A stretch of DNA of 56,140 nucleotides, filler included, from Jimgerdemannia flammicorona (Eukaryota), in the NCBI GenBank assembly GCA_003990765.1. It is 3 parts of 3 records of this genome, joined end to end, with 100 filler letters (N's around TTAATTAATTAA, not from the genome) between each part and the next. Parts side by side here need not be neighbours in the genome. Positions count along the whole stretch, not along the records: positions 1 to 18,650 come from RBNJ01002149.1; 2 more parts are not named here. The stretch is one strand, 5' to 3'. This document shows, piece by piece, positions 1-37,496 of the stretch. The number at the start of each line of letters is the position of its first letter. Positions within the stretch are counted from its first letter, which is position 1. Below the pieces are notes generated by a model that had not been told where the DNA came from, did not search any database, and worked only from the letters and a program-made list of their open reading frames with translations. Made by a program: the position numbers and the translations under genes.

Positions 1-99
1 CATACTTAAAAACCACCTTACCACCCACTACCCCAACCCTTCCCCCACTCTGTCCACAGATTTTCTCTATCAAGCGATGCTGCTGACTATCCTGTAGAC

Positions 100-3000: not shown

Positions 3001-3592
3001 GTCAATCCTTGTTCCCAAGTCACTTGCCCAGTACATGTACACCCTCCTATTACCCCAGAACTCCCTGCCAGCATCCACCAGAGTACTTAGCCTTTCAACT
3101 TCCTCCCATACCTCCAGACCTCCACTCCTACCCTCAGCCCCCTGCCCTCCATCAGTTCTATCCACCAGCACATCTCTGACTATATTAAAGTCCCCTCCAA
3201 GCATATCCACTCCAGCCTCTGCAAGGGCCCCACTCTTCTAGAGACCCTTCACCTAATTCACATGCTCACTCCACACAGCAGGGCAGTAGTAGAAACCCAC
3301 TATAACCAGCTCCCAACCTGTTCATATTCACTCTCCCCAAACCAGTTTGTCTCCCCAGCTTCTCATATCTCATATCTCCCCTCTGCCTCTCCAGACCAGA
3401 ATCCCAACCTTGCCCTTCCAAACTACCTCACCTCATCTATTTCAGTCTATCCAAATCATCCTCACATTTGACATCCTGCAAAAGAAAGAGATTAGCCTCC
3501 AATCCCTTCAGCTAAGCAAAAATGTTCTGATACTGAAACAAATCCTGTTACCTATTTACATTCAAAGAAAAAATGTTGGTTGTACTGTTTAT
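100..3592 (-). pseudogene. LINE ORF2 (APE-RT-zinc finger), multiple stops
   Basis: ORF-track pieces 2779-3210, 1875-2342, 1392-1664 and 254-499. The start (decayed ATG>ATA, NSTTNIFSLNV) aligns with ORF2 of the full copy. 3' boundary approximate. Confidence 0.88.
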
Positions 3593-3599
3593 AAGAAAT

Positions 3600-4920
3600 A
3601 TTGTGAAATTGCAAGTACATCCTCTACTGCTCTATATTCATCTCCTCTTGTGCCAAGTCCAGATTGTGTTCAGCAGACACCTCCTCCTCTTCAGCCCTCT
3701 TAGCCTCCAATCCAACCAATAGCTCAGTTATTTCTCCATCCTCCTTTTCCTCAAAATCCTTACAATACTCCAGACAGGCCTTCTGCCAGAGCTGCAATCT
3801 ATGATGCTCTGTCCAACAGAAGGTGGCTCTCTTATCAGTAGCAACTGCCAGCTCAGCCTCCCTCTCCTTATCAACCTCATACTCTTCCTCCTCTAGAAAA
3901 ACTGCAAATACCTCCACCTTTAGTGCCTCCACCACTCCATCACTATGTATGATTCTCACCCAATGCTCATCACTCATCACTCTTAGGTCCACTTCTCTCA
4001 GCTCTTCAGCCACAAAGTTATTCATCATCCAGTATATCTATAGTAGGTTTCCCACCTCCTTCCCCCCTGGAGTCACTGGCCATCCTCTACCCAGCATCGA
4101 GGTATCAGCCCCTATACTCATAGTCTCATCCCACTTCTCCTCTGGGACATCTACCAGTTCCTCCTCACTAACTGCCACCATCTGTCTCCCCTTTGCCACC
4201 TCAGGAACTCCAAGTGCACTTACTGGGCACTACACATTGACACATCCTCTGCTGCCTGACCTCTTGCTGCTGGTCTCCACCTAATGAGAGGAGGAGGGGT
4301 ATCCTCCCAGACTTCAAATATACCATCCTCATATGGGTCCTTACTCAGTGCCTTTCTGGCCTCCTCCTGACCCACCTCTACATTCTCTCCACTACTGCTG
4401 GCCCAGATACTTGCTTTGGCTTCTCCAGTATCCTTAATATCACCAGCAGCCCTCTTTGTCTCTCTCTCTAGTTTTACCAATAACTCCCTCTACCTCTCAC
4501 ATCCTTGGGACCTCTTCTATAGCCTCTTATCAATACAGATGTGCCTTCTATCAATAATCTCCAAGTGTGTCAACTCTACATATACCTTCCAAGCTTTTCC
4601 CCTCTACTCCACTATATTACTCAGCTCCTCCAGTACCTCCAGCAGGTCCTCCTCCTCCTTCTCACTTCCCTTCACCCTTGTCATCTTGCACATGAAGGCT
4701 CCCCACACCATTACAGAAGGCCAATCATGAGCTTTCCCAGTAGCCTCTCTCTCTGCCAACCAAATCTGAATGTCAACATCTTCTGTCTGGAAGGAGGTCT
4801 CTTCCCAGACCCTGAACCCAACATTGACCACCTCTCCATACTCAGCCATAACTTCCTCAACTCTCCTCCTCATCTCCACAGCAGTTACCATAGGAACCCC
4901 TTTCACCAAGAGCTGCATCA
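3600..4920 (-). pseudogene. LINE ORF1, C-terminal part
   Basis: Fragments 4604-4921, 4220-4480 and 3624-4028 are homologous to 30581-30937, 30200-30565 and 29603-30016. Confidence 0.8.
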
Positions 4921-5108
4921 TGGGGTACTATTGGCAGATTATAGTTCAATTGTACCCAGTCTTGGAAAATAATTTATTTGGTTCCACCACTCTATCTTAT
5001 TCAATATATATACTTTTTGATTTTTCTGCTTGACCTTTACTGCCATTTATATACTGCCATAATAGTTTCTCATCTTGCTCTAACATATATCTCTTTTTTC
5101 TACCTGTT

Positions 5109-5140
<32 letters not shown>
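4921..5140 (+). mobile_element. Poly(A)-tailed fragment, possible 3' end of another retroposed element
   Basis: About 28-nt A run at 5113-5140 preceded by pyrimidine-rich sequence; no TSD found. Confidence 0.35.
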
Positions 5141-5144
<4 letters not shown>

Positions 5145-5439
5145 AAGTATAGAATGAGTGCCTCTATAAGCCAACTTACTTTTAGATCCTTTTTGGGGAT
5201 TTTTTTTTCTATCTCTGGGCCAGCCTCTGTATATTGGCTGGCTATGTTTTTAGTCTTCTTCATAGACCTCTATAATATATATCTATCAACTGATCTTCAT
5301 ACTTTGGGCCCAACCTGACTATCATCTGTAACAGTACTACTGCTATTACTATCAGCACCTATATCCTCAGGTGGGTCTTTATTTTCTATCTATAACAATC
5401 CTAATCTACTTGCCAAGTATTCTAGTACAAACCCATCTA

Positions 5440-5975
5440 TAGTTACTATGATCTTTCATAATATATTTTAATCTTAAGATCTAAAAAAACTTAGCATTTA
5501 GTCTCCCTCAGTAATCTCTTCTCATGATCTACATTTTATCAAAAAAGTAGATCCTATGACTCTTTTTCATATCTTATTTCTATAAGAAGTTGTCCTGATC
5601 AGAGACTTCTCTAACTTGCTGATACTACTGGGACCATTACAGATATATTTCAGTATTCTCAATGCATTTTCCAGCCCCACTGACCTATCTGCATTCTTTT
5701 GATATATGACTGACCTCATCCAATTGAATAATAATTATCAATAGAAGGTACTCCTTGACTATCATCTCGAATTTTACACAAGACATATTGCTGCCCCTAC
5801 CTCTTGATCAGCTTACACAGCCTGGGCTATGCACGATGGAGAACTCATGTCTCTCTACCTACTACTATTCTTCCATTGATATGCTGGACCTTCCTCTAGA
5901 CCTATTCAACTGACCAAATGCCCATGATTCCCTATGACATCATCACTCCAATCAAAAAATGTCTGCAGAACCTAT
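5440..5975 (+). pseudogene. Probable gag-like ORF of a tyrosine-recombinase retrotransposon (Ngaro/DIRS), decayed and truncated by an LTR insertion
   Basis: Manual translation: IFHNIF*S*DLKKL...RDFSNLLILLGPLQIYFSILNAF...AFF*YMTDLIQLNNNYQ*KVLLDYHLEFYTRH...AWAMHDGELMSLYL...KNVCRTY. Resembles, from recall, the Y.W..VL.YH..F...W...D.EL pattern of fungal Ngaro gag followed by the start of a zinc finger. Confidence 0.5.
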
Positions 5976-7617
5976 TGTGACAAACTTAATATACCACTTG
6001 AATTATAATCTAGTCAGATGATGTAAATACATAGTATAGTAACCAGACATAGCAACCATTGCTATGGAAAACTGTATAAATAGCTGAACTACTAGATAAG
6101 GTATACTTGTGCCAAATCTACACATCTGTGCTAAATCAGCACATCTGTACTGAACTAGTACACCTACTATAGATAGCAATCTATAATTAGCAACATAGCA
6201 ACCATAATGTATAAAATACTCCAGAGACAAGAGTGAATAAACCTCAGTCCAAAATTGAATCCAAAGCAAAAGACAAGTCTGCCTACTACACTTTGAGAGG
6301 AACTCTATAGCCACTGTTAGGAGATTGTGAGCAAAAGTATTCCTTTTCCACTCTGGTCCACTTTCTGATACAAAGAAGAGTTTGTTATATTTTTGTTTCA
6401 CTTGCCAGATAAGCCTGAAGATTTGCTGCCAAAGTTCAAGAAAGAACTTTGCTACCTTTTGAGTAATCTGCTGCTTAAGGAATAAGCCACTATGCTTTGG
6501 TTTACTTGCCAGATAAGCCTGAAGAGAAATATGCATTCTTAGAGAGCCCACTATTCTTGCTACAAGCCAGTCTTCTGATGCAACTTCACAGTGATTCATT
6601 TATGCAAATAAAGTCAGTTGAGGTAACTTGCCAAGAATCTGAGTTATTATTCAAGAAGCCTGCTGATTAAGGAAGAATCCATGACATCCAAGTTATCTGA
6701 GTTATCCATATTATCTGCATTGTCTGAATTATTCATCTGTTTCCAGTAAGAAGAATCTACTGCCAGTATAATTCTCAGTGAGCCAATTCAGAAGAATCTG
6801 TGCATCCTCTATTCCTAGTAAAATCATCATTTCAGGAGAACCCACATCAAATTGAGTTATCTGCCAGAAATTGCATACTTTTGGAGATCATTATGCTATA
6901 CAAGATGGTCATATAGAAATTGCATAAAGAGAACTGCCAAATTACCAAACTGTCATACTACACTGAGAACATTGTACTACACAGAGATCACTATGCAGAA
7001 ATTGCATACTTTTGGAGATCACTGCTACTCAAGAAGGAAACTGCTAAATTACCAGTCTACTATATACCAAATCACTACTATACTCAGAGAACTGTCCCAA
7101 TAAGGAAAACCAATGAAATTGACCATTATATCCAGATTAACTATTATACCACTAAATACCAACAAGAATACCAGAATCTTAGAACATTTTGTTACTTTTG
7201 ACAAAGTAACTGGAGGCTCAAGCCAAACTATACCAATCTCCAACCTTGTAATTTGCCTCTATTGAGCTAGATACATTACATTTGGGGGCTCAACTAAAAA
7301 GATTTCAAAATCAATATGACTTTTCAGCTTATAAGAACCTACAGTCAAACTGGATATATTTGATATAACACCAATCTCTGCTATTATAGAAGAACCAGTC
7401 ATCACTAGTATCTGGACAGAAAGAGAAGTAATTACCTCAAAACTTACCAACTATGCAGCATCAGAAGGATCCCAACCAGAAATTAGTATAGTCTGAAATC
7501 CCAACTAGATCAACCAGACAACACAGATGGCCCTGTTGGAGACTTTGATGGACTTGCCCAAGAACTAGAAGATCTTATTGCATAAGTCTGAAATCCTACA
7601 GCCAGATATCCCATAGC
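5976..7617 (+). mobile_element. 5' part of an LTR retrotransposon (family A): LTR plus leader/gag remnant; LTR end not resolved
   Basis: Abrupt TGTGACA start after cctat. TATAAAA at about 6210 and GAGTGAATAAACCTCAG at 6231-6247, a motif shared with the LTR at 18786-19242. Cut off by the family B LTR at 7618. Confidence 0.5.
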
Positions 7618-10212
7618 TGTAAGAGGGTTACTTGTTAGAGTAACTGTTACGTAGTTCTGGAAGGGTTTTCTGGAAGTTTTGGATATTCTGGAAGACCATT
7701 TTCTTATGGTCAAGATCAATTTTATATGGAGTATGTCTTCTATGCTTATTGATTTCAAGATTGGGTTGACATCTCAACTAAAGTTCTTTTTCAGACTAGT
7801 TCTGGATGTTCAGGATTTTCTGTATTTCAGAAAGTTTAAGAAACTATGACCAGCTTAGTTGAATCAGCATATTACTGCAGACAATACCCAATTAGGAAAT
7901 TTCATGACAGGGTTAGGAGTGAGACCTAATGAGGAGTAGATTTACTTAAGAGTAGTTTGTGGGTTATTAAATAGATTTATTCGCTATTTATGATATTACT
8001 ATACTAGGAGTAGTTGTGTGAGGGAATATTGGAGAAGTGTTCAGAAGTTATATTCAGAATGTTCTGTGTATTTAAGTCTGAGATTCTGAGGTCTGGGGAA
8101 GAGGGTATTTATACTAATGGGAGGCTATCTGGACTATATTAATATGGATATAGCACTTAGTGCCTTGCTAAGTCAGAATGTAGTCATATAGTACAAGTGT
8201 GATCTGACATATCAAGAGATCATCTGACTACTGAGTCAGTTCACAGTCATATCATACAATGCTAATCTAACTATACTAATGACTACTGAGCTATCTATAG
8301 ATTTAGATGCTATCTGGGTAGTCTTTGATGATATCACCATCAATGACATTATCTCTGATGAAGTAGTCATCTATGAAGAGTGCTTCTTGGATTATTTCTC
8401 CTTGTTCACTCATGTAGTAATATATTGGAACCTCATTGCTGTCCTATAGAATTAGTGCTCCGAACGAGTCAATCCGGATGGGATTCTGATGGATTCGAAT
8501 CAGATTCGAATCGGATTCGAATCGGATTCGAATCATCCAAATTTGATGATCTTAGTGTCATTTGAAAGCCCTTAATAAGGCCTTTCTAATGATACCAAGA
8601 ACATTAAAATCGGATTACGTGTTGCCAAGATATTAAGGAAAACGTTCCATTTGACGAAATTTCCAAAATCGGCAAATCAAAGAATTTCCAAAATCGGCGA
8701 TTCAGACGTTTTCCTTCATAACTCAGCAACGCATGATCCGATTTCAATGTTCTTGGTATCATTAGATAGGCCTTATTAAGGGATTTCAAATGACACCAAG
8801 ATCATCAAATTTGGATGATTATTCATCAAGTTATTGATGTAAACATTTAATTGTCTAATTTGGAAATCAAAACAATGGTTGATTCATGGGATTTGAATCC
8901 CATCCAAGTTGATCTGGATGGGATTCGAATCCCATCTGAGTTGATCCAGATGGGATTCAATCCAAATCAATCCGAATCCAATCTGGATTAAATTGACTCG
9001 TTAGGAGCACTATATAGAATAGTATCATCTACTTCATATGATGAATATAGAGTTGGTGGGTGAAGGAGGGATGTGTTATCTTTGCTTTCATCAGATTTGC
9101 TGTCTGTATACCTTCTATAAGTTATGGTGCTATGAGTTCCTGGGTTGTAGTAAGCTAGCAGCTGTGGTTCATATTGCTTGTACTCAGGTGGTAGAGTTGG
9201 TTCAATCTTGAGAGTTGTCTAGAGGTATAGATTGTGTTCTCCAGTCTTCTCATTATAGTTGAAGTAATTAGGGATAAATGCAGATTGGTACTCATGCCAG
9301 TGGTCATTATCCCAATAAATCTCATAGGTGTTATGAACTGTTGTAAGTTCATTGGCAAGGTTGGCAGAGTAATCAGGATTGGCAGGGATCCTTGGCTTGA
9401 GGTCATGTCAGTATCAGAGGAATTGTTATCTTCTGCTTCATTATTGTCAAACCAGATTATATCATAGACATCCTTCATGATATATCCAACTTGGAGTATT
9501 TATAAGATGTGGTCATCAGAGTATGGGAAGGTTCTTTCTGTGGTTTGAACATACTTGATGTACTTGTGGTTGAGTTCTTGTATCATGTCATTGATTTGAC
9601 CATAGGACAGGGTGGCAACCATTTTGACAGTAATAACTTAGAGGCAGAGAATAACAGTGCTTACTTGTAGAAGAGTTCTCAGTATTTGTGAGCAATAAGT
9701 TTCTGGTGTTGAGACATCTGGGTAATGTCTGTGTTATAGTGGTGTTCAAAGGTAGTCGATCTGGTAGTAACTTGAGATTTGTCTGATTCAGTAGGCTTAG
9801 CTAAGCATATTCAGGGCATTCCATCAGACTTCTATGAAGTAGAGGAGTGCTAGGCTATGGATATTCATAAGGGGCAGAGGGGGTGTGGCTCAGTTGACAA
9901 TGGCATTCCAAATATTAGCACAGATGCAGTTGTAGATCTCAGTGGTCATATTTGTGTATATGTTCAAGAGTTGGGGTTGTTTATTTGGTTTATTGTGGTT
10001 CTCTATTTCAATATATCTGAATGCTCAGTATATATGCATTCAGTCCTGATTGGTAAGATTCCATTTGTAAGTCTAGTGTTCTATGACTTTGAGTTGACTC
10101 AGCTTCATGATCTTGTATATGATTTCTGGATTTGTTTAGAGGTCACATATAATTTCAGTGGCTTGTTCTGAGAGTGATGTGTAATTTCGGTGACTTGGGT
10201 TGTGCACTTACA
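7618..10212 (-). repeat. Family B 3' LTR (about 2.0 kb net of the 560-bp MITE)
   Basis: Termini TGTAAG...CTTACA. Homologous to 19243-21034 (+) and to 25339-25826 plus 31714-33305 (-). Confidence 0.92.
8453..9012. mobile_element. Non-autonomous hAT element (MITE), 560 bp
   Basis: 21-bp TIRs TAGTGCTCCGAACGAGTCAAT / ATTGACTCGTTAGGAGCACTA (1 mismatch). Perfect 8-bp TSD TATAGAAT (8445-8452, 9013-9020). The homologous LTR near 32049 has the empty site. Subterminal GATTCGAATC repeats. Confidence 0.95.
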
Positions 10213-10689: not shown

Positions 10690-12718
10690 TGGTATTCTGG
10701 AGATGAGTTTTGGGTTCCCATATTGCATCATAGATCAGATAACCTTTCCATTTGACAAGATACTCTGGATGGTTCTTGTGGTCATATTTATTGAGGATTT
10801 GTTCAACTTCATATTCTTCTTGATCATTAATAGTAATAGATATAGGTAGTTCTGTGGTTTGGTTGGAGAATAGCTCATTGTTATTTTCATTATATCACTT
10901 GAGACATTGGATATTGAAGACTGGGTGAATCTTAATAGTGTCTGGTAGTACTAATTTGTAGGAAGTTAGAGAGACTTGTGCAATGACTTCAAATGGTCCA
11001 ATGAATTTACTATTCAGCTTTGTAGATGATCTGTACTTGAGGTTGTCAACTCAGTATCCTTAGATATCTAGTAGAACTTTTTCTCTAATATCAAAAGTTT
11101 CTTCTCAGCAGTGCTGGTTAACATACTGTAACTGTTGTTCTTGAGCTCAGGATAAATTCTCAATTGCAATCTGACTTAAATTACACATTCAGAGCAAGAA
11201 TTCTTCAACAGCTTTGACTGTGGAAGGTTCATTGGTAGTTCAGATAAGTGTCAGAGAGGTGTTTGGGTTTTATCCTGTATTGGCAAAGAATGGAGTTATT
11301 TCTAGAGAGGCTTATTTGCTATTGTTGTATGTAAACTCAACTATGGTGAGGTATTCATATCAATCATCTTATCTATAGGAAACATAGTTCCTTAGCATTT
11401 GTTCCAGGGTTTGGTTCATTCTTTCAGTTTGGCCATCAGTTTTGAGATGAAAGGCTGTAGATAGTGCAAGCTTCATTCCAAGGTGTGCATAGAGGGCTTT
11501 TCAAAAATAGCTGGTGAATTTCGGGTCTTGATCACTAACAATAATCTTAGAAAGGCCATGATAGTAGAAAATATTGTCAAACAAGAGTATAGCTATGTCT
11601 GGTATAGTTGCAGTAATAGTAGTTGGTACAAAATGAGTCTGTTTACTGAGATAGTCCACAAAGACAACAATTGTATCTTTCCTATTCTTGGTTTGGGGTA
11701 GTTGTACAATGAAGTCTATAGAAATTTGTTCCCAATTAGTGGATGGTACTGAGATAGGGTGGAGTAGACCAGGTTTTGCTAGTGTTGATGACTTTTTGCA
11801 TTAGCAGGCATCACAGGAAGTGATGTAGGTTTTTAGCTAATCTGCCATGCAGGGCCAATAGAAGTTTTGGGAAATAACTTCATAGTATTTGTCAAATCCT
11901 AAATGTCTGGCTGTAGGGGCATTATGATATTCAAATAGGATAGTTCTTTAGAGATCTCAATTGTTTGGAACATACAATCTGTTCTTGTAGTAAATAGCAT
12001 TGTCCTTCAGTTGATATTGGTGATACTAGGTGTGCTTATTGATATCATCACTGCTCAGAATTTCTTAGAGTACTTGAGCTTCCTTATCATCAGCACATGC
12101 TGTAGTAATTTATTCCATGATAGAGTTGGTAACCAAGGTGAGAGTTTGGATGACCTCTTTGATTGGTGGTCTGGAGATTGCATTGGCAACAATATTTTCC
12201 TTATCAGAGCAATACTGGATTTTGTAGTCAAAGTTGGTGAGGACTTTCATCCATCTGGCTTGCTTCTGAGAAAGGGTAGCCTGAGTCTTGATGTTGACTA
12301 ATGATTTGTGGTCTGTCAGGACTATAAAGTGTGCTCTTTTGAGATAGGGTCACTATTTGATCAGGGTGTCTATAATGGCTAACATTTCTTTCTCGTGGGT
12401 TGTATAGTTGATTTTGGCATCATTGAACTTTCGAGAATGATAGGCCACAGGGTGTCCTTCTTGTATGAGTACTGCTCCAAGAGCTAGGTCAGAGGCATCA
12501 GTGATAACTTTATATAAGAGGGCAGGGTTTGCCACTTAAAGTACTAGAGTAGTTATCAAGGCATTCTTCAGTGCTTGAAAGGCTGTATCTTGTTTGGGTC
12601 TCCAATTTATGAGATTGTTGAAGTCTTTTTCTTGTTTTGTAGTCTAAGGCTGTTCTTCTTTCTTGCTGTACTTGGTCATTTGGATGAGGGCAGTAGTGAT
12701 TTTGACAAAGTTTGCAAC
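10690..12718 (-). pseudogene. Family B pol C-terminus (RH-IN-chromodomain)
   Basis: Chromodomain EEYEVEQILNKYDHKNHPEYLVKWKGYLIYDAIWEPKTHLQN at about 10695-10820; RNase H at 12353-12535. Confidence 0.9.
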
Positions 12719-13641
12719 TAGTGCTCCAAATAGATAGAATTAATCCAGATGAGATTTGATTCAGATTCGTTATGTGATAGATTCAAATCAACTTGGATTG
12801 GTCTTGTAATTTGATCTGGATTGATCTGGATTGATCTATCTGAATTGATCTATCTGGATTGATCTACCCAGATTAATCCATCCAGATTGATCCATCCAGA
12901 TTGATCTATCTGGATTGATCTATCTGGATTGATCCATCCAGATTGATCCACCCAGATTGATCCAGATTGATCCATCTAGATTGATCCATCCAGATTAATC
13001 TATCTGGATTAATTACATGAAATCTTTAATAATATTACCCTTTCTTTTATTCATTTTTCGCTCTGTTTTTTTTTTCCTACTGCACTTTGGTGATATCACT
13101 CTTTCTTTTTGTTCCCTCTCTTCTTTTGTTCTTTGTTCTTTTTTCTTTGTTCTTTTTCTTTTCTGCCACATCATGAGCAAACAAAACAGCAGCTCTTAAT
13201 CATACATTGGTCCAGTCTACTCATTTTTACCCTGCAATAATTGTCAAAAGAGAGAGTATTTGAGGTAGAAACATACTCTCTGCTGATAATGTTAGATTCT
13301 TTCTCATATGGGCAGCACACAAGCTGCTCATTGAGAGTCAAAGAGGCAATGGCAGTAGCAATGGCAGTGGTGATGGCAGTGGCAATAGCAGGGGTAATAG
13401 TGGGGATGAGGGAGAATTCTGGCAATAACTCATGGTAGCCCTTTGGACCTCGGAATTCACAGACCTCATAGCTATGTACACAGCAGCCTTTTTGGAGCAG
13501 CTGATAGTAGTAGATTGCTCATTCTGCTGCCACTTGTGTTTTACTTTTTTTAATTTCCCCCAGTATAACCCAATTCATCTTATGCTTTTTCTTAGGGTAT
13601 AGCAAGATCTGCTGACTTTATTCCCAACATCTGGTCAAGAT
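12719..13641. mobile_element. Older, more decayed terminal 920 bp of the large hAT family
   Basis: Starts TAGTGCTCC, has the GGATTGATCCATCY array, and is collinear with 13642-14453. Interrupted by the second copy after gtcaagat. Confidence 0.88.
12815..13012. repeat. Subterminal ~14-bp tandem array (GATTGATCYATCYR)n; a second array lies at about 13738-13856
   Basis: Directly visible tandem units next to the hAT TIRs, the usual position of transposase-binding repeats. Confidence 0.85.
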
Positions 13642-13993
13642 TAGTGCTCCGAATGAATGGAGTTGATCCAGATGAGATTCAATTCAGATTCGTCATGTGA
13701 TGGATTCGAATCAACTCAGATTGGTCTCGTGATCTGATCTGGATTGATCCATCTGGATAATCCATCTGGATTGATCCATCTGGATGATCCATCTGGATGA
13801 TCCATCCGGATTGATCCATCTGGATGGACCCATCCAGATTGACCCATCCGGATTGAAATCTTTGGTGACATCACCCTTTCTTTTGTTTATTTCGCTCTTG
13901 TTTTTTTTTTTCTGCTGCACTTTAGTGACATCACCCTTTCCTTTGTTTCCTCTCTTTTCTTTGTTCTTTTTCTTTGTTCTTTCCTGCCGCATC

Positions 13994-15432
13994 ATGAGCA
14001 AACAAAACAGCAGCCCTTAATTCATATGTTAGTCCAGTCTACTCATTTTTCACTCTGCAATGATTATCAAAAGAGGGAGTATTTGAGGTGGAAACACACT
14101 CTCTGTTGACAATGTTAGATTCTTTCTCATATAGACAGTACACAAGCTGCTCATTGAGAGCCAAAGGGGCAATGGCAGTGGCGGTGGCGATGGCAATGGC
14201 AGGGATGAGGGAGAATTCTGGCAACAACTCATGGCACTCCTTCGGATCTCAGAATTCACAGACCTCATAGCTATGTACACGGCAGTCTTTTTGGAGCAGC
14301 TGATAGTAGATGTAGGTTGCTCACTTGGCCGCCACTTGTTTACTTGTGTTTATTTAAACTTCCCCAGTATGACCCAATTCACCTCGTGCTTTTCTTAGGG
14401 TCTACAGCTCTATGGCGAGATCTGCTGACTTTATTCGCAACATCTGATCAAGATGAAGAAAGGCTGGTGGACATTGCGGGGCATGCCTTTGGTGGCTGAG
14501 CTGTTGAGTCAATGCATTGCATAGCAGAGGTCTCAAAAGGAACAGAAGCAAGCCTTTGTGAGCAATTCTTGTACAACTCGTACAACTCATTGGCATGCAA
14601 CTCGTCAGCATACAGCTCACTCACTCATACTCTTTTTCTGAAATACCCACCTCTATGTTTTATTTAATTTCATTTTTATGTGGTCTCTCCCTAAAAAACA
14701 CCCACACCCACATGCAACCTACATGCAACCCATCTGCATGCAACCCACCCACACACAACCTGCCTGCAACCCGCCCGCATGCAACCTGCCCACACACAAC
14801 CCATCTGCATACTTATCTTGGTCCCTCAGATCAGGGCTCAGTTCTATTGGAAAGGAGATTTCAAAGTTACCCAAGTTCAACCACATCCAGCATCTGATCA
14901 AATAGAGAAATTTGAGGGCAAGATGTTCAGTGAGTCCTGCCAAAGTGCACGGCGCCCGTGGTGATTCACTGAGAGAAGGGTATTGGGGGGCTCTCTTTAC
15001 AACACATATACTCTTTACAAACACACACTGCTCCAGGGGGGCGGGATAGGATTGGGGGTGTCCTTGACCACCCCCACCCCAATCCTATCCCATCCCAAGC
15101 CTCCCTGTCATAGCTTTTTTTTTAAAAAAAAAAAAAAGAACAAAGATACAGTGTGCACGCGGTATCGCTCATGCGTCATCCACCTAAGAATGATCGGAGC
15201 AACATGGACAACTAAGCAAGTCCACAGTTCATGTGATGAGTTTATACCTCGAGCAACACTGGAGTTTATACCTATCATGACAAATACAGGAGTTCATACC
15301 ACGAGCAACACATCATACCTATCAAGTACCAGCCAATGTGCTAACAGTGACAGTATTATTTTGTAAAAATATGTTCTGTGAATAAAGTCAGGCTACTACT
15401 GGAGAAACCCCGAGTAGTGATGAATCTGAAGG
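13994..15432 (+). pseudogene. Putative N-terminal exons of the hAT cargo gene (13994-14311, 14399-14557, 14830-14929, 15152-15432), unknown domain
   Basis: GT-AG introns whose phases (0,0,1,0) keep one frame into 15513. About a dozen in-frame stops, all explicable by single transitions; for example a TAG here is TGG in the older copy near 13308. Confidence 0.45.
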
Positions 15433-15512
15433 GTGGTTTCGGTCTCTTGAAAAAGAGTCGATCCCTTATTCTTAACCTTGAAACCGAAAAAAAAAAAAAA
15501 AAAAAAAGCAAG

Positions 15513-16672
15513 ATGTTCAGCATGAGTAGTACTAGCATCGTCATCAAGGCTTGGGGGTCTATATTCGAATCAGAGCCAATCATACTCGACCAAGGGGTCC
15601 ATTGGCTAGCAGGAGTAACCAACGACGAAGAGAACCATATCTTTATTAATAAATATGGAGAGGTGGTTGCGATGGTGGTAAGAAACCTCTATGGCGACAA
15701 GCTTCGCCGCCACATCAACGAGATTTGTGAGGATTGCATCAAATACCAAGTGGCAGGAAAGAGGGGGTGAAAAAAGCAAGGAGGGGGGGTTTGGATGGGA
15801 ATTGGGTATACTGCAACACTGGCGAAGAGTGGGTTCTGGAGTTCCGAAATCCCCCACACTCATCTCCCTTTTTTTTTTTAACCTCTCCCCAGATAAATCA
15901 CACTCTTCACTGACACACTCTTTTTTGATACAAATCCAGGGATGCACAAGATTCTGTACCCCTACCAGAACTTTAGAAGTACCGTCAAAGAGCAAACTGC
16001 GTGCGAGCATAACATGGCCTGTGTGGCGATGGCAGCTATGATCTGGGGTTCTTTAAGCAGATTGGTAGAGTGTATGGCAGGCCAGCTTGGTGGTGATCTC
16101 GGTGCAGCTGTACATATATTCTTGGCACAATTTGGTGTACTGTATGAGGTGAGGAGCTCTGCTTTTTTGGGGTGCTGCAGCCTGGGGGGTTTTTGTGGCC
16201 CGGGGGGTTTCTGCCCCCCTGAACACAAAAAGGACTGACCAGTTGCCATCCATTTTGACAGGTTTCCAAGCTGGGGCTCCTGGGGCTGGACCAAGGGCAG
16301 GCATCCACCAGCACAGCCTGGCAGTATGAGGTCCTGGACCAAGGGTTCACCCAACCATATGCTCGCATCACATCAGGATATGTCAGGTGCAACCTTTCTC
16401 TACCCATACACACAGACAATAATGTCACCCCAGTAATGTTTTATGTCTCAGAAAGAAAGGGCCCAACCTGGGAGGATAGTGGTGGAGTCTGGTACAACCT
16501 CACCTACAGTTTTGGGGTCCCATTTGCAGCCAATACAGCCATCCTATTCCAACCACACAACCACCACGGCACCATCACCTTCGAGGAGAGCTCGGACACA
16601 ATACTTGTCACACTCACAACAGATGATAGGCTCATCAAGGCCTGGGACCAGCGGGTGGAGCAGTTTTTGTGA
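15513..16672 (+). pseudogene. 2OG-Fe(II) dioxygenase, TET/JBP-like; exons 15513-15828, 15940-16148, 16262-16672 (311 aa, one internal TGA at 15768-15770)
   Basis: Spliced translation ...VAGKRG*KKQGGGVWMGIGY...ITSGYVRCNLSLPIHTDNNVTPVMFYVS...SGGVWYNLTYSFGVPFAANTAILFQPHNHHGT...DRLIKAW. HxD at 16409-16417, distal HHGT at 16562-16573. Introns have GT..CTGAC..AG and are in phase. Confidence 0.72.
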
Positions 16673-16954
16673 GGGTTAGGCAATCTTTCATGAGGAGTAG
16701 GCAGCCATTTTGTGCGGGTTGGGCAGTCTTATGTGGGGGGGTTGGGCTGGGCACCTCTTATGTAGCACTAGCTTAGTCATTATGCAGGGCCCTACTGGCC
16801 CCTCAGCCCTGCTCTGTAGTGCTGCCAGTGCGGTGCTGTAGTGCAGGGGCAGGGTGTCTGTGGGACCTGAACTGGCAACTTTGACTGCCGGAAATGCCCT
16901 CCGACCACCAGAAGCACCCTCCGACTGCCAGAAGCACCCTCCGCCCCAGACTCC

Positions 16955-17420
16955 TTGGCAGCTTGGGGCTGCCCCTATGCCGCTGGTGGAGGGCCACAAA
17001 TTTTGCATGCTCCCTCTGCCTGCCCTGCCCGTCCTGGACACTTGTGGCTTGGGGCTGCCCCTTGCTGCCAGCAGAGGGCTGCAAATTTTTGCGTGCTCCC
17101 TCTGCCAACCCTGCGCCTGCCAACCGACCCTGCCCACTGATCCGGGCACTGACAGCTTGGGGCTGCCCCTTGCTGCTGGCAGAGGGCCACAAATTTTGCA
17201 CGCTCCCTCTGCCTACCCCCCTGACCTGGACACTTGCGGCTTGGGGCTGCCCCTTGCTGCTGGCAGAGGGCTGCAAATTTTGCATGCTCCCTCCGCTGAC
17301 CCACCCACCACCCACTGACCTGCCCACCAACCCACCCACCAACCCGGACACTGGCAGCTTGGAGCTGCTCCTTGCTGCTGACTGAGGGCCGCAAATATTG
17401 TGTGCTCTCTCCACTGCCAC
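16955..17420. repeat. GC-rich minisatellite, five copies of a ~57-bp core with variable linkers
   Basis: Core cttggggctgccccttgctgctggcagagggcYRcaaattttgcaYgctccctctgcc starts at 16962, 17048, 17156, 17240 and 17358. Confidence 0.9.
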
Positions 17421-17551
17421 TGCCAACTCCACCCCACTTTGGCCGCAAACTCTGGGCCAAGTCCTCAGGTTTTTTTTTTCCTTTTTTATTATTTTGAAAG
17501 GTATTAAATATTTCACAAGGCCAACCAACTTATCCATGAACCTGCTGAATT

Positions 17552-18620
17552 TTAGTGGCCTGAGCCCCACCAAGACTTCAGACACATATATGCCCAGATT
17601 GTCTTAGCATTCAGCACACACCTCTTTGGGGCAATGAGGTCCACCCCACCTGAGAACACCCACTCGATGGGAGTGCTAGAGGCAGGAATCGCCAGGTAGT
17701 CTCGAGCCATACCATATAGGCTAGGGAAGTCCATTTGACGCAGCTGCACACCCCAGTGGGTAGAGCAGTAATTAGATTGGTGGGTTAGATTGGTGGGTTA
17801 AATTGGCCCAACGCCTGCCTGACAACCCACCTTCCACCAGTTGAGCACCTCTGTGCCCTCCAGCAGGACCACGCGGTCGCTGGCGAGATAAATAGTAAGT
17901 TTGTCTATTGATGGCAGCTCTTCCACTGATGGCTCCCTCTTCTTCTTTCTGCCAAAGTAAATGTGGGACAGGAGGGATCCCTTGGCATATTCATCTAGAC
18001 TTTAGCTGGAATCTTGCAGCGGTGCATAGTTTTTCCAGTATACTTCAATTATGGCCTGCTTAGTTCTCTCAATGAAGTGCTGCTCCCAGCCCTGATCTTT
18101 ATGGTATTGTAGCTTTAAGCGTGGGTCCAGCACTGTTCGAAGAAAAGGAGAGTGAGTTTTTGCAGAGTTTTCTCTGCTTTGGAAGGGGCAATGGCCACAC
18201 ACTAACATCGACATACCTGTACTGATTGAGTATACGGTGGTATCTGTTTGGGAGTAGTATTTTCTAAGCTTGCTTAGAGCAACCTCCACAGTGTCTCTCT
18301 GATCTGGGCTTAACCATAAATCACCGCAACCCTCCAGCCTATCCTTGAGCTTGTCCTCTAGCCAGTCGATCAGAAGGTTGTATACCAGTATTGCAGAGCT
18401 TATTGTCGGGGTCATTTGTTTGACTATATCCTTCGTACAATCATTGAAACACTGGCAGTTATATGTGGTGAGGTGTTGCATTGTGTGGAGGCAGACAAAA
18501 TGAGTGTGGAGCCAGGGCAACCACCACTTACTTCCAAAACTCTGACAATATTCCTAAGTATGTCCCACTCACTTTCACCTAGAGCCTTGGCCCATATTTC
18601 CTTATCGGCAGCCATCGTTG
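17552..18620 (-). pseudogene. hAT transposase C-terminal half with dimerisation domain; introns 18452-18531, 18133-18216, 17744-17830; one stop at 18002-18004
   Basis: Spliced translation EWDILRNIVRVLE|CFNDCTK...TPTISSA...KLRKYY...SIST|VLDPRLK...EVLNWWK|LRQMDFPSLYGMARDYLAIPASSTPIEWVFS...LNAKTIWAYMCLKSW. These are canonical hAT motifs (W in the ERxFS position fits CGG>TGG decay). Confidence 0.93.
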
Positions 18621-18650
18621 AATCTATTGGCTTTTTTTTTTTTTTTTTTT

Positions 18651-18750
18651 NNNNNNNNNNNNNNNNNNNNNNNNNNNNNNNNNNNNNNNNNNNNTTAATT
18701 AATTAANNNNNNNNNNNNNNNNNNNNNNNNNNNNNNNNNNNNNNNNNNNN
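18651..18750. other. Assembly gap with artificial six-frame-stop linker TTAATTAATTAA
   Basis: 44 N + TTAATTAATTAA (18695-18706) + 44 N; identical structure at 37397-37496. Confidence 0.97.
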
Positions 18751-19256: not shown

Positions 19257-20370
19257 ATAACCACTGAGATCTACAACTACATCTGTACTGACATTTGGAA
19301 TGCTATTGTCAACTGAGCCACACCCTCTCTGCTTCTCATGAATATCCATAGCTTAGCACTCCTCTACTTTGTGGAAGCCCAATGGAATGCCCTGAACATG
19401 CTTAGTGAGGCCCACTGAATCAGACAAATCTCAAGCTACTACCAGATTAGCCACCTCTTAGAAGATATGGTCGAACACCACTATAATACAGACATTACCT
19501 AGATGTCTCAATACCAGAAACTTATTACTTGCAAACACCAAGAACTCTTTTATGAGTATAGCACTATTATTCCCCACCTCTAAGTTACTACTACTGATAT
19601 GGTCACTATCCTGTCCTATGGCCAAATAGATGACATGATACAAGAACTCAACTACAAGTATCTCAAGCATGTTCAGACCATAGACAGAACCTTCCCACAC
19701 TCCAATGATCATATCTTGCAGATGCCCCAAGTCAGATATGCTATAAAGGATGTCTATGATATAATCCAATTTAATGAAGATGAAGCAGAAGACAATGATC
19801 CCTCTGATGCCAACATGACCTCCAGCCAAGGATCTCTACCAACCCTGATCACTCTGCCAACCTTACCGATGAACTTATAATAGTTCATAACTACCTATAA
19901 GACTTATTGGGACAATGACCACTGGTATAAGTACCAACCTGCATTTATCTCTAATTACTTCAACTATAATGATGAGACTGGAGAATACAATCTGTACCTT
20001 CAGACAGCCCTCAAAATTGAACCAACAACCCCACCACCTGAGTATGAGCAACATGAAGAACAACTGCCAGCATACTATAACCCTGCAACTCATAGTGCTG
20101 TTACCTATAGAAGGTATGCAGACAGCAAATCCAATGAAAGTGAAGATAATGCACCCCTTCTCTGCTCACCAACATCTTATCCAGCATACAAGACAGATGA
20201 TGCTATTCTGTGGGATGGCAATGAAGTCCCAATATATTATTACCTCAGTACACAAAGAGAAGTAATCTGTGAACAACTCTTCCTAGACAACTACTTTATC
20301 AGAGATAATATCATCAATAGTGATACATATCATCAAAGACTACTCAGATAGTGTCTAAATCTATAAATAG
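19257..20370 (+). pseudogene. Unknown ORF (~370 codons) inside the U3 region of the family B LTR
   Basis: One frame from (M)TTEIYNYICTDIWNAIV through MVTILSYGQIDDMIQELNYKYL to YKTYWDNDHWYKYQP...DAILWDGNEVPIYY. Some stops are sense codons in other copies (TAA TAG here, QQ in copy 1). ATG intact in copies 1 and 3. Confidence 0.65.
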
Positions 20371-20547
20371 CTTAGCAGTTATAGTATAGTTAGATTAGCC
20401 TTATACAACATAACTGTGAACTGACTTAGTAGTCAGACAATCTCTTGATATATCAGATCACACTTATACTATATGACTGCATTCCAACTCAGCAAAGTAC
20501 TAAGTGCTACATCTATATCTAGCATAGTCCAGATAGCCTCTCATTAG

Positions 20548-20676
20548 TATAAATACCCCCTCCTCCAGACCTCAGAATCTCAGACTCAAATACATAAGAA
20601 TATTCCTGAACACTTCTCCACAATATCCCTTCATATAACTACTTCTAGTATAGCAATATCATGAATAGTGAATAAA
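20548..20676 (+). promoter_or_regulatory. Family B LTR TATA box (20548-20555) and poly(A) signal (20671-20676)
   Basis: AGTATAAATACCCC and GTGAATAAACCT are conserved in the LTR copies. Confidence 0.65.
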
Positions 20677-21037
20677 CCTATTTAATAACCAACAAACCAC
20701 TCTTAAGTAAATCTGCTCTCCATTAGGTCCTACTCCTAACCCTATTATGAAATTTCCTAATTGGGAATTGTCTATAGCAATATGCTGATTCAACTAAGCT
20801 AGTCTTAGTTTCTTAAACTTCCTGAAATATAGAAAATCCTGAACATCCAGAACTAGTCCAAATAAGAACTTTAGTTGAGACATTAACCTAATCTTGAAAT
20901 CAATAAGTGTTAAGGATATACTCTATATAAAATTGATCTTGACCTTAAGAAAACAGTCTTCCAGAATATCCAAAACTTCCAGAAAACCCTTCCAGAACTA
21001 CATAATAGTTATCCTAATAAGTAACCCTCTTATAACT

Positions 21038-24896: not shown

Positions 24897-26049
24897 GACA
24901 ACAAAATTATCCTTGGAATCCCATGGTTGAAACAAGAGAACCTCATGATTGATTGGATAAACCATTCTCTGATTATCAAGAAAGGATGTCACAATTTCAA
25001 ACTGTAAGATGAAAAGGACCCACTCAGTCCCAGTGACTCTGGACCAAAGATCACCTATATTAACAAGCTACTGCTCAAGAAATTGGCCAAGAAATGCCCT
25101 CTCTTTGCCATCTCCATCCGTCCATCCAAAGGAGAACCCAAGAACTCTGAAGAAGATTTTTCCAAAGTTGACAGCTATGTTAGACCCCTACTCTAGAAAT
25201 TCCAAGACATATTCCCAAAGAAACTTCTGAAAGGCCTACCTCCTAAATAAGCAGTAGACCATGCCATCAAGACTATCTCAGATACCAAGCCAGCCTTTAA
25301 GTCAATATACCATATATCTCTAAGAGAAATTGATGCACTATAAAAGAGTTACTTGTTAGGGTAACTGTTACATAGTTCTAGAAGGGTTTTCTGGAAGTTC
25401 TGGATATTCTGGAAGACTGTTTTCTTAAGGTCAAGACCAATTTCATATAGAGTTCATCCTCTATACTTATTGATTTCAAGATCAAATTAACATCTCAACC
25501 AAAGGCCTTTTTTGGACTAGTTCTAGATGTTTAGGATTTTCCATATTTCAGGAAGTTCAAGAAACTAAGACCAGCTTAGTTGAATTGGTATATTGCTGCA
25601 GACAACACCCAATTAGGAAATTTTATGATAGGGTTAGGAGTGGGATCTAATAGAGAGTGGATTTACTTAAGAGTAGTTTGTGGGTTATTAAATAGGTTTA
25701 TTTGCTATTTATGATATTGCTATACTAGGAGTAGTTATGTGAAGGAATATTGTGAAGAAGTGTTCAGAAATGTTCTTGTGTATTTGAGTCTCTGATTCTG
25801 AGGTCTGGGGGAGGGAGTATTTATACTTTTTTTTTTTTTTTTTTTTTTTATAGTCACTTGGACTCCTTTATTACCAATACATATGTCTATCCTCTATATA
25901 ATACACAGTGCCCCACCCCTACCTGATCCCCCTAGAGACTCCCCCCCTCTATCCCTTCTCGATGAAAGACCACTTTATCAAACACCATTTCCACCTGCCA
26001 TCACTCTGTCTACAGATCCCTTCCACCAGATGGCGATGTTGCCCCCCTT

Positions 26050-29000
26050 AAGGACCCCATCCAACCCACCACCCAGTCAGTAGATCCCCCACCAACTCCT
26101 CCCACCTCAATAACTTCTCCTGTATCCCTATCTATCACCTCTCCTCAAAAACAAAGAGCCAATATCCAGCCAACCCCACCCACACTGCTATAACCCACCC
26201 TACAGTGAGCCACCTATTGCCAACACCTCTCACCAGTCTAGATTCCAAATCCTCTCAGCGACCTCTCTCCATCCGGTCTCCATTTGACACCCAGCTGGTC
26301 CCCTATAGCTATCCAAAAGTCCTCCAGAACCTCACACTCTCCCAGCCAATGTACCGGTATCTGCACAAATCCCCCAGCTTACCCTACATTATAACACTCC
26401 TCACAATCCAGTCAACCACCATCCACCAGATGCCCAGCATGGAAATTTAACATAATATTTCTCTACAGCATTCGCCACCATACTACCCAGAACTTGGGAG
26501 GAAGCCACCTCTGCACCTCAGCACTCCAAGACCTGATTCCTGCCCAGTCCCACTCTTCACCAATCCTCACCGCCTACCAACTACTTGGCCAAAGATCCTG
26601 ACCAAGTCCCCACTAACACTCCACTCTATCACTAAGATCAAACTTAGCAAGTGGAACTCTCCCTAGAAGCAGATGGTCCCATCGCCACATAGCTGGGCCC
26701 CACACCACCTCCCCCTCATTGTCTCGCCAGCGCAGGCCTATCCAGTATGCTCCATCCACCACTCCCCACCAGAAGCCCTTAAACTGTAGCTGTTGGCTTC
26801 CATTCAGATCCACCAAAGAGAGTAGATCTCCTGAGGACCCCCGGGGGGAGAATCTCATCTCCCACACCTTCTGCATCAGCAGTACCCAACCTCCACCCTG
26901 TAGATCAATAGCTCTTTTCAACCACCAGGCTCACAGGCAGTGTGGTCACTTAGGGAAATCGACAAGGCCTAGGCCTCCCCTAAGCACCGGCTCTACAAGG
27001 GTATCCCAACTGATCTGGGCCCTTCTTCCAGCCCAAATCCAATCCCTAGCCAGTTTTGTCAGCCTCTTCACCACCCAGGCTGGAAAGTCTAAGTAGTATG
27101 CTACATACCATAGCTTGGAGAACCAGTAAATATTCAGAATCGCCACTCACCCCGCCAGGGAGATGTGACGACCCCCCCAACCTTTAGTGCCTCTCCCCAA
27201 ATGACCACCCTCCTCTCCCACCATATCTGTGGCAGGACTGATCCATATATAGACAGGAAGATACCTAGATACTGCACCACCTCTCCTGTAGGGACAATTG
27301 TTCCAATGATGTCCCCTCCCACTAGCTCATTCCTCAACACCATTATCTCACACTTATGCTAGTTGAGTTTTGCTCCAGAGTGTGCCTCATACCATTCTAC
27401 TGTTTCCTGAAGAGCCTCTACATCTGCTACTGATCCAAGTCCAACTATCATATCATCTGCAAAGACTCTCACTTTCTACTCTACACCATACACAGAGAGC
27501 CCAGCCACCTTCCTACAGATCCTATCCATCAAAGGTTCCAGGGAAAGGACATAAAGGATAGGAGACAGCAGGTCTCCTTGAGGAACTCCTCTCCCCAAGA
27601 GAAATGCCAAACCCCTATGACCATTATACATCAGTGCTGCTTGACTCCCCTCCAACAAATTCAACATAGACTCCCAAAACTGTGGTGGAATACCAATTCG
27701 GTCTAGTACCTTGCCCAGCCAAACCTGCCAAACACAGTCATAGGCCTTCTTCTGGTCCAAAAAAACCAATCTACCATCCAGTCCACAAGCCCAGACCCCT
27801 TCAATAATGCCATGCACCCAGGCAGTCCTATCTCTGATAAGTCTACCTCCTACAAAGCCCTGCTGCTCCTCACCCAGCACCTGTTGGGCAACCTTCTATA
27901 GTCTTGCAACAATCACCTTAGTCACCAACTTCTGGTCCATATCCAGAAGCATGATCGGCCTCTAGTTCTTCCAATCCTCGTACCTGCTCTTGTCTTTGTA
28001 CAAAAGGGCCACCAGCCCTAAGTCCTGCTCTCCAACCCACATACCATTTAGAAGAACATAGTCACAGAGGGCAGCTATCTCTCCCAGCACTCTAGGGACT
28101 TTTGCCATCTTCTTCCAGAAGTCCCATGGTAACCCATCCTCCTCTGGCACTGTCCCAAGCTTAGTTGCTGCCAGGACTCCTTGGATCTCCTCCTCTTGGA
28201 CTGGTATGATCAAGTCACCCAGTCCCTCCACCTGTGGCGGCTTCCACTCCTCCAGTGTGTTGCCAATTGTCTCTGTATCAGTACCCCCTTCTTTCTCACT
28301 CCATAGACCCTGCCATTTCTCCTTCAATACTCTTAGGATCTGTTACGTACCATATACCAAATCCCCCTCAGCATTAAGGACCCCATCCCACCGATGTCTC
28401 ACCCTCCTAGCTTTGAGGAGCCTAGACAAGTATCTAGTAGGCTGCTCTCTCTCCTCAAGCCCCTGCCACCTTAGCCTGGTAGCTATTCCTTGCATATGAG
28501 TCTCCTCCTCCTCTCTTAACACCTGTTGTAGTTCCACTACCTCCAATTTCGCCCACTCTAATCTCTAATCCTCCACCTCACCAGAAGTAAGCAAATCAGC
28601 CCACTCTATCTGCAATCTCCTCAGCCTATCTGAAGCACACCTTACACACTTCCTCCTCTGTCTCCCAGCCTCTCTACCAGCTCCTCCCCAATAGACCCTC
28701 ACAGCCTCCTTCAACCTCATCCAATGGACACCCACAGACAAACTCTCCTGCCTCCAGAGAGGAACCTTCGCCTGGATGTCCTCCACCCATGAGTCCCACA
28801 ACCCTTTCTCAGCCAGCAGAGAGGAGTTAAGGTGCCAATATTCAGGTCCATCTCCACTCCCCCCAAACTGCCCCTGCCCTAATAGTCCCTAGTGATCAGA
28901 CCACAGGCACCACTCTACCTCCAAAGTCTTCCAAACATCAGCACCTCAATATTTGGCTGTCAGAATCCAGTCAATCCGTATCCCTAAGCCATTCACCCAG

Positions 29001-29571
29001 TGTGTGTAGACCCTGGTGTTACCCTATCACATTCTGCCCAATCCCCTAAAGAGCTAAGATTCTCTACCTCCTCCCATGCATCCAGACCACCACTTCTCCC
29101 ACCGGCATTTCTCCCTCCATCAGTTCTATCTAATTGCGGATCCCGAACCATATTAAAATCACCACCCAGAATATCAACACCTTCCTCTAAAAAGACACCC
29201 TCCTCCAGCAGCTCCTTAATCCATGCAATTCTCTCATCTCTCACTGCAGGGCAGTAGCAGGAGCCAACTCTTACTGAATCCCACCCCGGCTGATGCCATT
29301 CTCCCCAGACCAAGCGGTCACCCCAGTTTTTGATTCCCTCTAAGTCTCCTCTACCCTTCTTCACCAGAATCGCCACTTTGCCAAACCAAGCTATAGCCCC
29401 ACCCCAGTACCTAGTCCACTTTACCTGATCATCCTCATCCTTACACTGTACATCCTGCAGTAAAAAGAGATCAGCCTCTAATCCCTTGAGTCAAGTAAAA
29501 ATGTTCTTTCACTGCCCAGAACCCCGTAACCCATTCACATTCAGTGAGAAAATGTTAGTTGTACTATTCAT
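26050..29571 (-). pseudogene. LINE ORF2 (AP endonuclease, RT, C-terminal zinc finger)
   Basis: MNSTTNIFSLNVNGLRG...LLQD, LGGDFN, SDH; EEQQGFVGGRLI, FLDQKKAYD, GVPQGDLLSP, FADD at about 27453-27464; CEEC...HWLGEC. 3' end approximate. Confidence 0.93.
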
Positions 29572-29574
29572 AGG

Positions 29575-37396: not shown

Positions 37397-37496
37397 NNNN
37401 NNNNNNNNNNNNNNNNNNNNNNNNNNNNNNNNNNNNNNNNTTAATTAATTAANNNNNNNNNNNNNNNNNNNNNNNNNNNNNNNNNNNNNNNNNNNN
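37397..37496. other. Assembly gap with TTAATTAATTAA linker
   Basis: N runs flanking the linker at 37441-37452. Confidence 0.97.

Follow-up and report, generated by a model that had tools for sequence, protein, structure and literature searches.

DNA transposons that carry genes for TET/JBP-like enzymes have been described in rusts, mushrooms, truffles, and morels (Kojima 2025, Biology 14:1741, PMC12730594). The parts of that study drawn on here report TET genes of rust fungi on hAT and six other transposon lineages, list twenty hAT7 families with TET genes from six Puccinia species, and propose an anti-methylation, anti-hypermutation role for transposon TET genes (PMC12730594). They also distinguish PU, AG, and PE types, of which the PE types occur on Helitron, IS3EU, EnSpm, Zisupton, and Plavaka transposons of Pezizomycetes and Agaricales and are linked to TET only by HHpred E-values of 1.4–19 and by structure comparison (PMC12730594). 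Here we describe a locus of this kind in a 56,140-nucleotide stretch of DNA from Jimgerdemannia flammicorona (assembly GCA_003990765.1; hereafter the window), in which a truncated hAT copy at 13642–18650 holds a convergent three-exon gene flanked by the hAT terminus and by the 3′ end of the transposase gene. It is reasonably probable that this gene is a hAT passenger encoding a TET-like enzyme.

In general plan the locus is like Puccinia hAT7, a hAT element with a TET/JBP-like passenger beside the transposase, set among C-to-T hypermutated repeats and with a proposed anti-silencing role (PMC12730594). It differs in the details given there. The hAT7 elements make 7-bp target-site duplications (TSDs) and their consensus sequences start with CAACGGTGGGC or CAGCGATGGGC (CAACGG/CAGCGA), whereas the window family makes 8-bp TSDs and has TAGTGCTCC termini; the TET of hAT7 is PU-type and its gene, where stated, precedes the transposase on the same strand, unlike the window gene, which is downstream and convergent (PMC12730594). 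Within the supplement text of that paper (cells up to 400 characters), TAGTGCTCC matches once, internally in an EnSpm row, and at no terminus (PMC12730594). An earlier note on this DNA, made from sequence alone, did not recall hAT as a described carrier of such genes; given the hAT7 report, however, hAT as a carrier is already in print (PMC12730594). A TET-carrying hAT is thus a further example and not a new principle, while the hAT family, the gene arrangement, and the TET lineage differ from those in the parts of that study used here. A literature search centered on the PF20515 family alone turned up one preprint, on a rust pan-genome, which is unrelated.

A Conserved Three-Exon Gene

The gene lies on the plus strand, with exon 1 at 15513–15828 (105 codons plus one base, ending in phase 1), exon 2 at 15940–16148 (ending in phase 0), and exon 3 at 16262–16672, which includes the stop codon. 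The intervening sequences are GT..AG introns (intron 1, 15829–15939, GTGGGT..CAG; intron 2, 16149–16261, GTGAGG..CAG), and the joined exons comprise 936 nt, or 311 codons and a stop. The sole internal stop is an in-frame TGA at codon 86 (15768–15770), in a column occupied by Lys in all three relatives that cover it (P0004, P0009, and the metagenome locus L001). The spliced protein contains KRG-x-KKQGGGVWMGIGY, N-x5-HTDNN, GGVWY, TAILF, and HHGT. The exon coordinates, in-phase splicing, 311-residue product, and TGA that the earlier note had proposed are borne out, as are the motifs it had listed (HTDNN, GG-aromatic, TAILF, HHGT, and GG.WMGIGY). The ATG at 15513 is a guess: nothing upstream of that position corresponds to the first ~90 residues of P0004 and L001, which makes the N-terminus uncertain. 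Within the window the gene occurs in one copy only.

Relatives of the gene were found by searching exon 3 against 1.84 billion representative proteins, which returned seven matches, five of them true relatives (P0002, 78% identical; P0003; P0004; P0005; and P0007) with E-values that include 1e-62, 1.6e-32, 1.7e-12, and 1e-10. The other two, P0006 and P0008, were set aside as low-complexity repeat proteins, and further protein homologue searches contributed only P0009. Both P0004 (374 aa) and P0009 (259 aa) run uninterrupted across the two exon junctions, and at the junction of exons 1 and 2 the window reads ..LAK-R-MHKILYPYQNF and P0004 ..YAK-G-MHCRISPLSNF. A tblastn comparison of P0004 with the window recovers exons 1–2 (E 1.3e-6) and exon 3 (E 3.4e-16) in the correct order.

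A metagenome scan added two nucleotide loci, L001 and L002, confirmed among 63 pattern matches. The L001 gene has an open frame, with 347 codons and one terminal stop over the last three exons, and it carries an additional upstream exon. One L001 intron shares column and phase with window intron 1 (..FAS/G/MH.. vs ..LAK/R/MH..), and the next, in phase 0, falls within ~5 alignment columns of window intron 2 (..LYL/DHPTLPRLDGG vs ..LYE/VSKLGLLGLDQG). L002 is a 99% identical copy of L001 with a premature stop in its last exon, and its differences from L001, past a diverged first 20 bases, are mostly G>A or C>T. A direct repeat of ~73 bp (1–73 and 180–252) occupies L002 1–252, upstream of the gene. 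All relatives found in the databases searched come from metagenome-type sources, and the sequencing runs listed as matching the gene include no RNA run and are all DNA runs from soil metagenomes (shares 0.16, 0.02, and 0.00).

The homologues and conserved introns indicate that the gene is real. Together with them, the TGA in the Lys column marks the window copy as a pseudogene of a real, conserved gene, and the transposase has likewise decayed, with an in-frame TAA at 18002–18004.

Relationship to TET/JBP-Like Dioxygenases

The proposed iron ligands are the His at 16409–16411 and the Asp at 16415–16417 (HTD), and the His at 16565–16567 within HHGT (16562–16573). In alignment A2 the two His and the Gly are invariant in six of six rows, and the carboxylate column holds Asp in five of the six, as it does in L001, and Asn in P0005 (HVN). 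The family thus presents the HxD/E...H triad by which membership is judged.

Protein language-model searches place the family near named TET-like groups. With P0004 as the query, the first-ranked ESM Atlas match was a Basidiomycota cluster (score 0.96, 209 of 256 features) in which 15% of members belong to PF20515, and a PF12851 (Tet_JBP) cluster stood at rank 11. Window exon 3, which is 29% identical to P0004, retrieved PF20515 clusters at rank 1 (0.92, 180 features) and rank 2 (0.91, 171 features), and a Tet_JBP cluster at rank 5 (0.88; recognition 2904); according to the search tool, at least 170 shared features are typical of same-family matches. For two family members, therefore, the nearest named clusters are PF20515 (2OG-FeII_Oxy_6) and PF12851, although neither hidden Markov model (HMM) matches them.

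Several blocks of the window protein resemble published transposon-borne TET sequences when compared by eye with Table S1 of PMC12730594. GEVVAMVVRN resembles GEIVAMVYRN of Tuber borchii, SGGVWYNLTYSFGVPFAANTAILFQPHNHHGT aligns ungapped to QGGNFFISDYGIRIRGAENTLVAWQTRMFHGT, GGGVWMGIGY resembles the PU-type GGKMWGIGW, T-x-x-x-RL comes after the last strand, a trait shared with PE types, and the fourth residue beyond the first His is Asp or Asn, which some PU types show as well (HNDND) (PMC12730594). The best by-eye match is the PE type, through a GE[IV]VAMV.RN strand and a G[YW][ST] loop preceded by a basic stretch; the common core comprises GG-aromatic...Y[GS][IF]..[VI]...[AE]NT....[WF]Q....HGT with the distal His, and T..RL after the last strand (PMC12730594). 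PE types and the window family are both missed by Pfam-level HMMs and both are without a conserved canonical Arg-x-Ser. They differ in that the PE hallmark is HxE (section 3.4), whereas the window family has HxD (HTD, HVD), and in that the parts of the study used here do not report PE types on hAT (PMC12730594). By this comparison, the lineage fits none of the three types published there cleanly.

Among solved enzymes we compared human TET2, Naegleria NgTET1, Coprinopsis CcTET, and Chlamydomonas CMD1, as covered in the parts of PMC7854593 used here. The window family is like all four in having an HxD...H triad and a basic residue upstream of a Gly-rich loop (PMC7854593). In TET enzymes an Asp or Asn shortly after HxD contacts N4 of 5-methylcytosine (5mC); this acidic or amide residue is at H+5 in TET2, NgTET1, and CMD1, and its candidate counterpart is at H+4 across the window family (HTDNN, HVDED, HVDDD, HVDFD), a position that some PU-type rows share (PMC7854593; PMC12730594). 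The Arg that binds the C5-carboxylate, Arg1896 in TET2 and Arg289 in NgTET1, has no counterpart at the usual position here (PMC7854593). The earlier note had remarked that a C-terminal Arg-x-Ser was not evident, and rightly so.

Several observations weigh against this assignment. First, a canonical Arg-x-Ser ~10–16 residues after the distal His is absent from six of six aligned relatives; four of the six have an Arg 21 residues after that His, and in a fifth it is shifted by one. Second, hmmscan against Pfam with the window exons, P0002–P0005, and the L001 exons gave no match to PF12851 or PF20515 at E up to 10, and phmmer and hmmsearch of PDB sequences with P0004, P0001, P0009, and the A2 profile found no TET, CMD1, or other dioxygenase. 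Third, AlphaFold2 returned a mean predicted local distance difference test score (pLDDT) of 37.4 from A2 (6 rows) and 35.8 from A3 (11 rows). Fourth, the language-model matches are labeled as leads by the ESM Atlas tool itself, the comparison with PU, AG, and PE sequences was made by eye without a statistic, and the family has HxD where PE types have HxE. Finally, the window copy, as a pseudogene, carries no information on activity. The earlier note's claim of a TET/JBP-like enzyme consequently stands in part, through the language-model look-alikes and by-eye blocks, while the Pfam profile search that it had suggested as a check came out negative.

The rejected matches from these searches deserve brief mention. 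The Pfam noise at E up to 10 consisted of Bys1, DUF2688, Peptidase_S11, and MFP2b. Among PDB sequences, the Tako8 and FBXW7 matches are spurious, being sums of 6-bit matches of ..TTDDRLIKAWD.. to WD40 repeats. The C-terminal tail HHGTITFEESSDTILVTLTTDDRLIKAWD (16562–16660) resembles one WD40 repeat, and its E-value of 3e-8 against a designed 8-bladed WD40 protein is misleading.

The best-surviving alternative accepts a real hAT passenger and denies that its product is a TET/JBP oxygenase: the protein would be some other double-stranded β-helix enzyme or no enzyme at all, and its HxD...H pattern would have arisen by chance or act on a different substrate. The silence of Pfam and PDB at E up to 10, the unusable AlphaFold2 models, the lack of a canonical Arg-x-Ser, and the HVN of P0005 all speak for it. 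Yet PF20515 and Tet_JBP clusters come out as the closest named neighbors of two separate members that share only 29% identity, and ungapped blocks match published transposon-borne TETs at the iron-ligand positions by eye (PMC12730594). Since the published PE types are themselves detectable only by HHpred E-values of 1.4–19, HMM silence is also to be expected here (PMC12730594). We consider this alternative unlikely, and membership in the TET superfamily, as judged from these sequence comparisons, quite likely.

Association With the hAT Element

The gene begins 1.9 kb inside the terminus at 13642, ends 0.9 kb from the transposase stop, and is convergent with the transposase. The convergent arrangement between a terminal inverted repeat (TIR) and a minus-strand hAT transposase that the earlier note had described was recovered at the exact coordinates, and the transposase is identified by a PF05699 hAT dimerization domain at 17552–17797(−) (Pfam scan, E 3.9e-12, 46.2 bits against a cut-off of 21.4). 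Self-comparison of the window showed no match to 14455–17551 apart from its own internal repeats, and no foreign repeat boundary within it. CpG observed/expected is 0.32 in the gene, 0.33 in the whole element, and 0.11 in the surroundings.

Cargo status draws further support from L001. Downstream of the L001 gene, at a distance of 1.65 kb, are GATTTGA-type subterminal repeats followed by ..TTGACTCGTTGGAAGCTCA, which aligns with ..TTGACTCGTTAGGAGCACTA of the window family. The 16-mer pattern GCTYCNAACGAGTCAA, which was defined after this alignment had been seen, occurs once in L001, at its right-end terminus (3608–3623), and is found in none of 200 shuffles; its sole occurrences in the window are the two ends of the short element 8453–9012. 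No partner terminus was found within L001, so the gene would lie inside the L001 element. An independent locus thus appears to hold an intact homologue inside a related hAT-like terminus, which supports the interpretation of the window gene as cargo. Between the L001 gene and this terminus, at 2320–2945(+), are two open frames of 93 and 94 aa that match nothing in Pfam and are absent from the window; they could represent a further passenger gene.

Against cargo status stand the missing far terminus in the window, the left end of L001 lying off its contig, the single gene copy seen, the absence of a transposase from the Pfam scan of L001, and orientation, as the L001 gene points toward its nearest terminus and the window gene points away. 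These bear on a second alternative, in which the gene is not hAT cargo and belongs to another element or to the host, the terminus, gene, and transposase having been juxtaposed by nested insertion or rearrangement. A single terminus on an element cut by a contig end, a region filled with nested repeats, and one gene copy in the window would all fit this account, as would the carriage of published PE-like TET genes by other superfamilies (PMC12730594). It does not, however, sit well with the lack of any other repeat boundary or match between 14455 and 17551, with the diverged and independent L001, in which the gene is again found ~1.65 kb within a terminus of the same sequence family, or with the CpG depletion of the gene, which equals that of the element and not that of its surroundings. 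We judge juxtaposition to be quite improbable. That the three-exon model consists of chance open frames has next to no probability and is already refuted, for although the model holds a stop codon and its start codon is without support, it has homologues to E 1e-62, colinear tblastn matches over all exons, relatives that span both junctions, and an L001 intron 1 in the same column and phase with intron 2 at the corresponding junction.

With the gene taken as a TET-like hAT passenger, a bolder proposal can be made: that the family is a fourth lineage of fungal transposon-borne TET-like enzymes beside PU, AG, and PE, combining HxD with PE-like blocks, lacking the canonical 2-oxoglutarate-binding Arg, and having long traveled with one hAT family. 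In its favor, gene and terminus are recognizable together in two very different genomes, one with an element of ~49% GC and the other that of an AT-rich metagenome organism. We nonetheless hold this proposal to be doubtful, and put it forward as a long shot. The missing Arg may reflect an altered co-substrate or chemistry, by analogy with the algal CMD1. CMD1 uses vitamin C because it has no basic residue to stabilize the 2-oxoglutarate carboxylate.

Termini, Copies, and Transposase of the hAT Family

The gene-carrying copy, copy 2, is visible from its left terminus at 13642 to the contig end at 18650, and is missing its far terminus and the N-terminal half of its transposase. Its TIR, TAGTGCTCCGAATG (13642–13655, +), aligns with related termini at 8453(+), 8999(−), and 12719(+), and is followed by 8.8 copies of a subterminal 14-bp tandem repeat, ATCTGGATTGATCC (13737–13856). 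Immediately to its left is a fragment from the left end of an older family member (copy 1; 12719–13641, +), which aligns with 13642–14454 at 84% identity, with 102 transitions and 22 transversions. Copy 1 is also the more mutated, its CpG observed/expected being 0.09 vs 0.43 in copy 2. Given this alignment, copy 2 is nested in copy 1, having inserted directly after ...GTCAAGAT.

The family also includes a non-autonomous 560-bp element at 8453–9012 with ends TAGTGCTCC..GGAGCACTA, flanked by a perfect 8-bp TSD, TATAGAAT, at 8445–8452 and 9013–9020. An 8-bp target duplication is a typical hAT trait. Short TIRs with an 8-bp TSD, the structural mark of membership, are thus found on this element, the gene-carrying copy showing one end only. 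The short element contains an internal palindrome (8531–8820 is 82% identical to its own reverse complement) and interrupts a Ty3/gypsy-like repeat with an uninterrupted relative at ~20205–21032.

The C-terminal part of the transposase occupies 17552–18630(−) with about three GT..AG introns. As far as 18630, its frames resemble the C-terminal 40% of hAT transposases from fungi, and the dimerization domain by which hAT membership is recognized is present at 17552–17797. A trace of hAT-like_RNase-H gave a weak match (E 0.093), and the catalytic N-terminal half, where the RNase H-like DDE core and BED finger of hAT transposases would be expected, falls past the contig end at 18650. Taken together, 13642–18650 is a dead, assembly-truncated copy of the hAT superfamily, from a family with TAGTGCTCC termini and 8-bp TSDs.

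Two further repeats lie within copy 2. The stretch that separates the TET-like gene from the transposase 3′ end holds, at 16880–17420, GC-rich direct repeats of ~90–100 bp, an array with 55% GC that contains ..CTTGGGGCTGCCCCTTGCTGC..GCAAATTTTGCA.. Upstream of the TET-like gene by 420 bp, a 20-nt inverted repeat, GGGGCGGGATAGGATTGGGG/CCCCAATCCTATCCCATCCC (15038–15096; 90% complementary, 19-nt loop), is followed by a T9A16 tract. The poly-A that precedes the gene and the contig-end poly-T give an inverted match of 32 nt, which was rejected as a homopolymer effect, only about 7 of 12 non-A positions agreeing.

Cytosine Mutation in the Surrounding Repeats

Self-comparison shows the window to be a repeat graveyard of Ty3/gypsy-like elements, with an RNase H-like frame at 12353–12535. 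Three pairs of repeats were compared (9016–12561/32052–35643, 37498–45145/44815–52401, and 19245–20561/31714–33016). Transitions dominate between copies, for example 508 vs 65 and 921 vs 64 transversions, and C/T differences affect 16 of 16 CpG sites, 39% of CpA, 35% of CpC, and 10% of CpT. CpG observed/expected over the window is 0.11. The earlier note had taken the repeats to be destroyed by cytosine mutation, and this transition-dominated divergence, the C/T state of every CpG site, and the CpG depletion show that picture to be correct. TpA observed/expected is 0.44–0.68 in the hAT segments, which is no enrichment, and so the mutation pattern is not that of classical Neurospora-type repeat-induced point mutation.

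A strong strand asymmetry, with a GC skew of −0.4 to −0.5, is seen at 1–6000 and 26000–32000. These skewed regions hold a ~4.9-kb repeat twice (97–4920 and 26053–30912; 68% identity).

Assembly Limits of the Window

The window consists of three contigs joined at two artificial gaps. Positions 18651–18750 read N44 + TTAATTAATTAA + N44, an identical construct recurs at 37397–37496, a poly-T run precedes each, and TTAATTAATTAA is a six-frame stop linker. The TET-like gene and hAT copy 2 sit at the end of the first contig, which ends in poly-T. With the gaps artificial, adjacency across them is meaningless, and nothing past 18650 is known to adjoin hAT copy 2. The loss of the far TIR to a gap, as the earlier note had it, is explained by the artificial join from 18651.

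Proposed Function and Significance

From the features above we infer a fold, a chemistry, and an anti-silencing role for the product of active copies. The convergent three-exon passenger, carried between the terminus and the transposase 3′ end, would encode a TET/JBP-like Fe(II)/2-oxoglutarate dioxygenase of ~311 aa, belonging to a rare lineage borne by fungal transposons and near PF20515 and the PE and PU types. In active copies the enzyme is predicted to bind iron via His225, Asp227, and His277 (numbering of the spliced model), and would oxidize 5mC, or a related methylated base, on the DNA of the element. Such oxidation could erase or change the methylation by which repeats are silenced and which comes before their C-to-T mutation. 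The window copy itself is dead and has no function of its own.

DNA transposons with their own methylcytosine oxidase would hold a counter-defense against host methylation and mutation of repeats, and the spread of such genes across transposon superfamilies suggests that they are easily exchanged. To the hAT carriers of TET-like genes the present locus contributes a second family, unrelated to the first, with TAG termini and TSDs of 8 bp. It also adds a TET-like lineage that is known only from metagenome fragments in the databases searched and that standard domain models miss, and Pfam-based surveys would therefore undercount such genes. If it is true that this lineage lacks the usual 2-oxoglutarate-binding Arg, an intact homologue would merit biochemical study.

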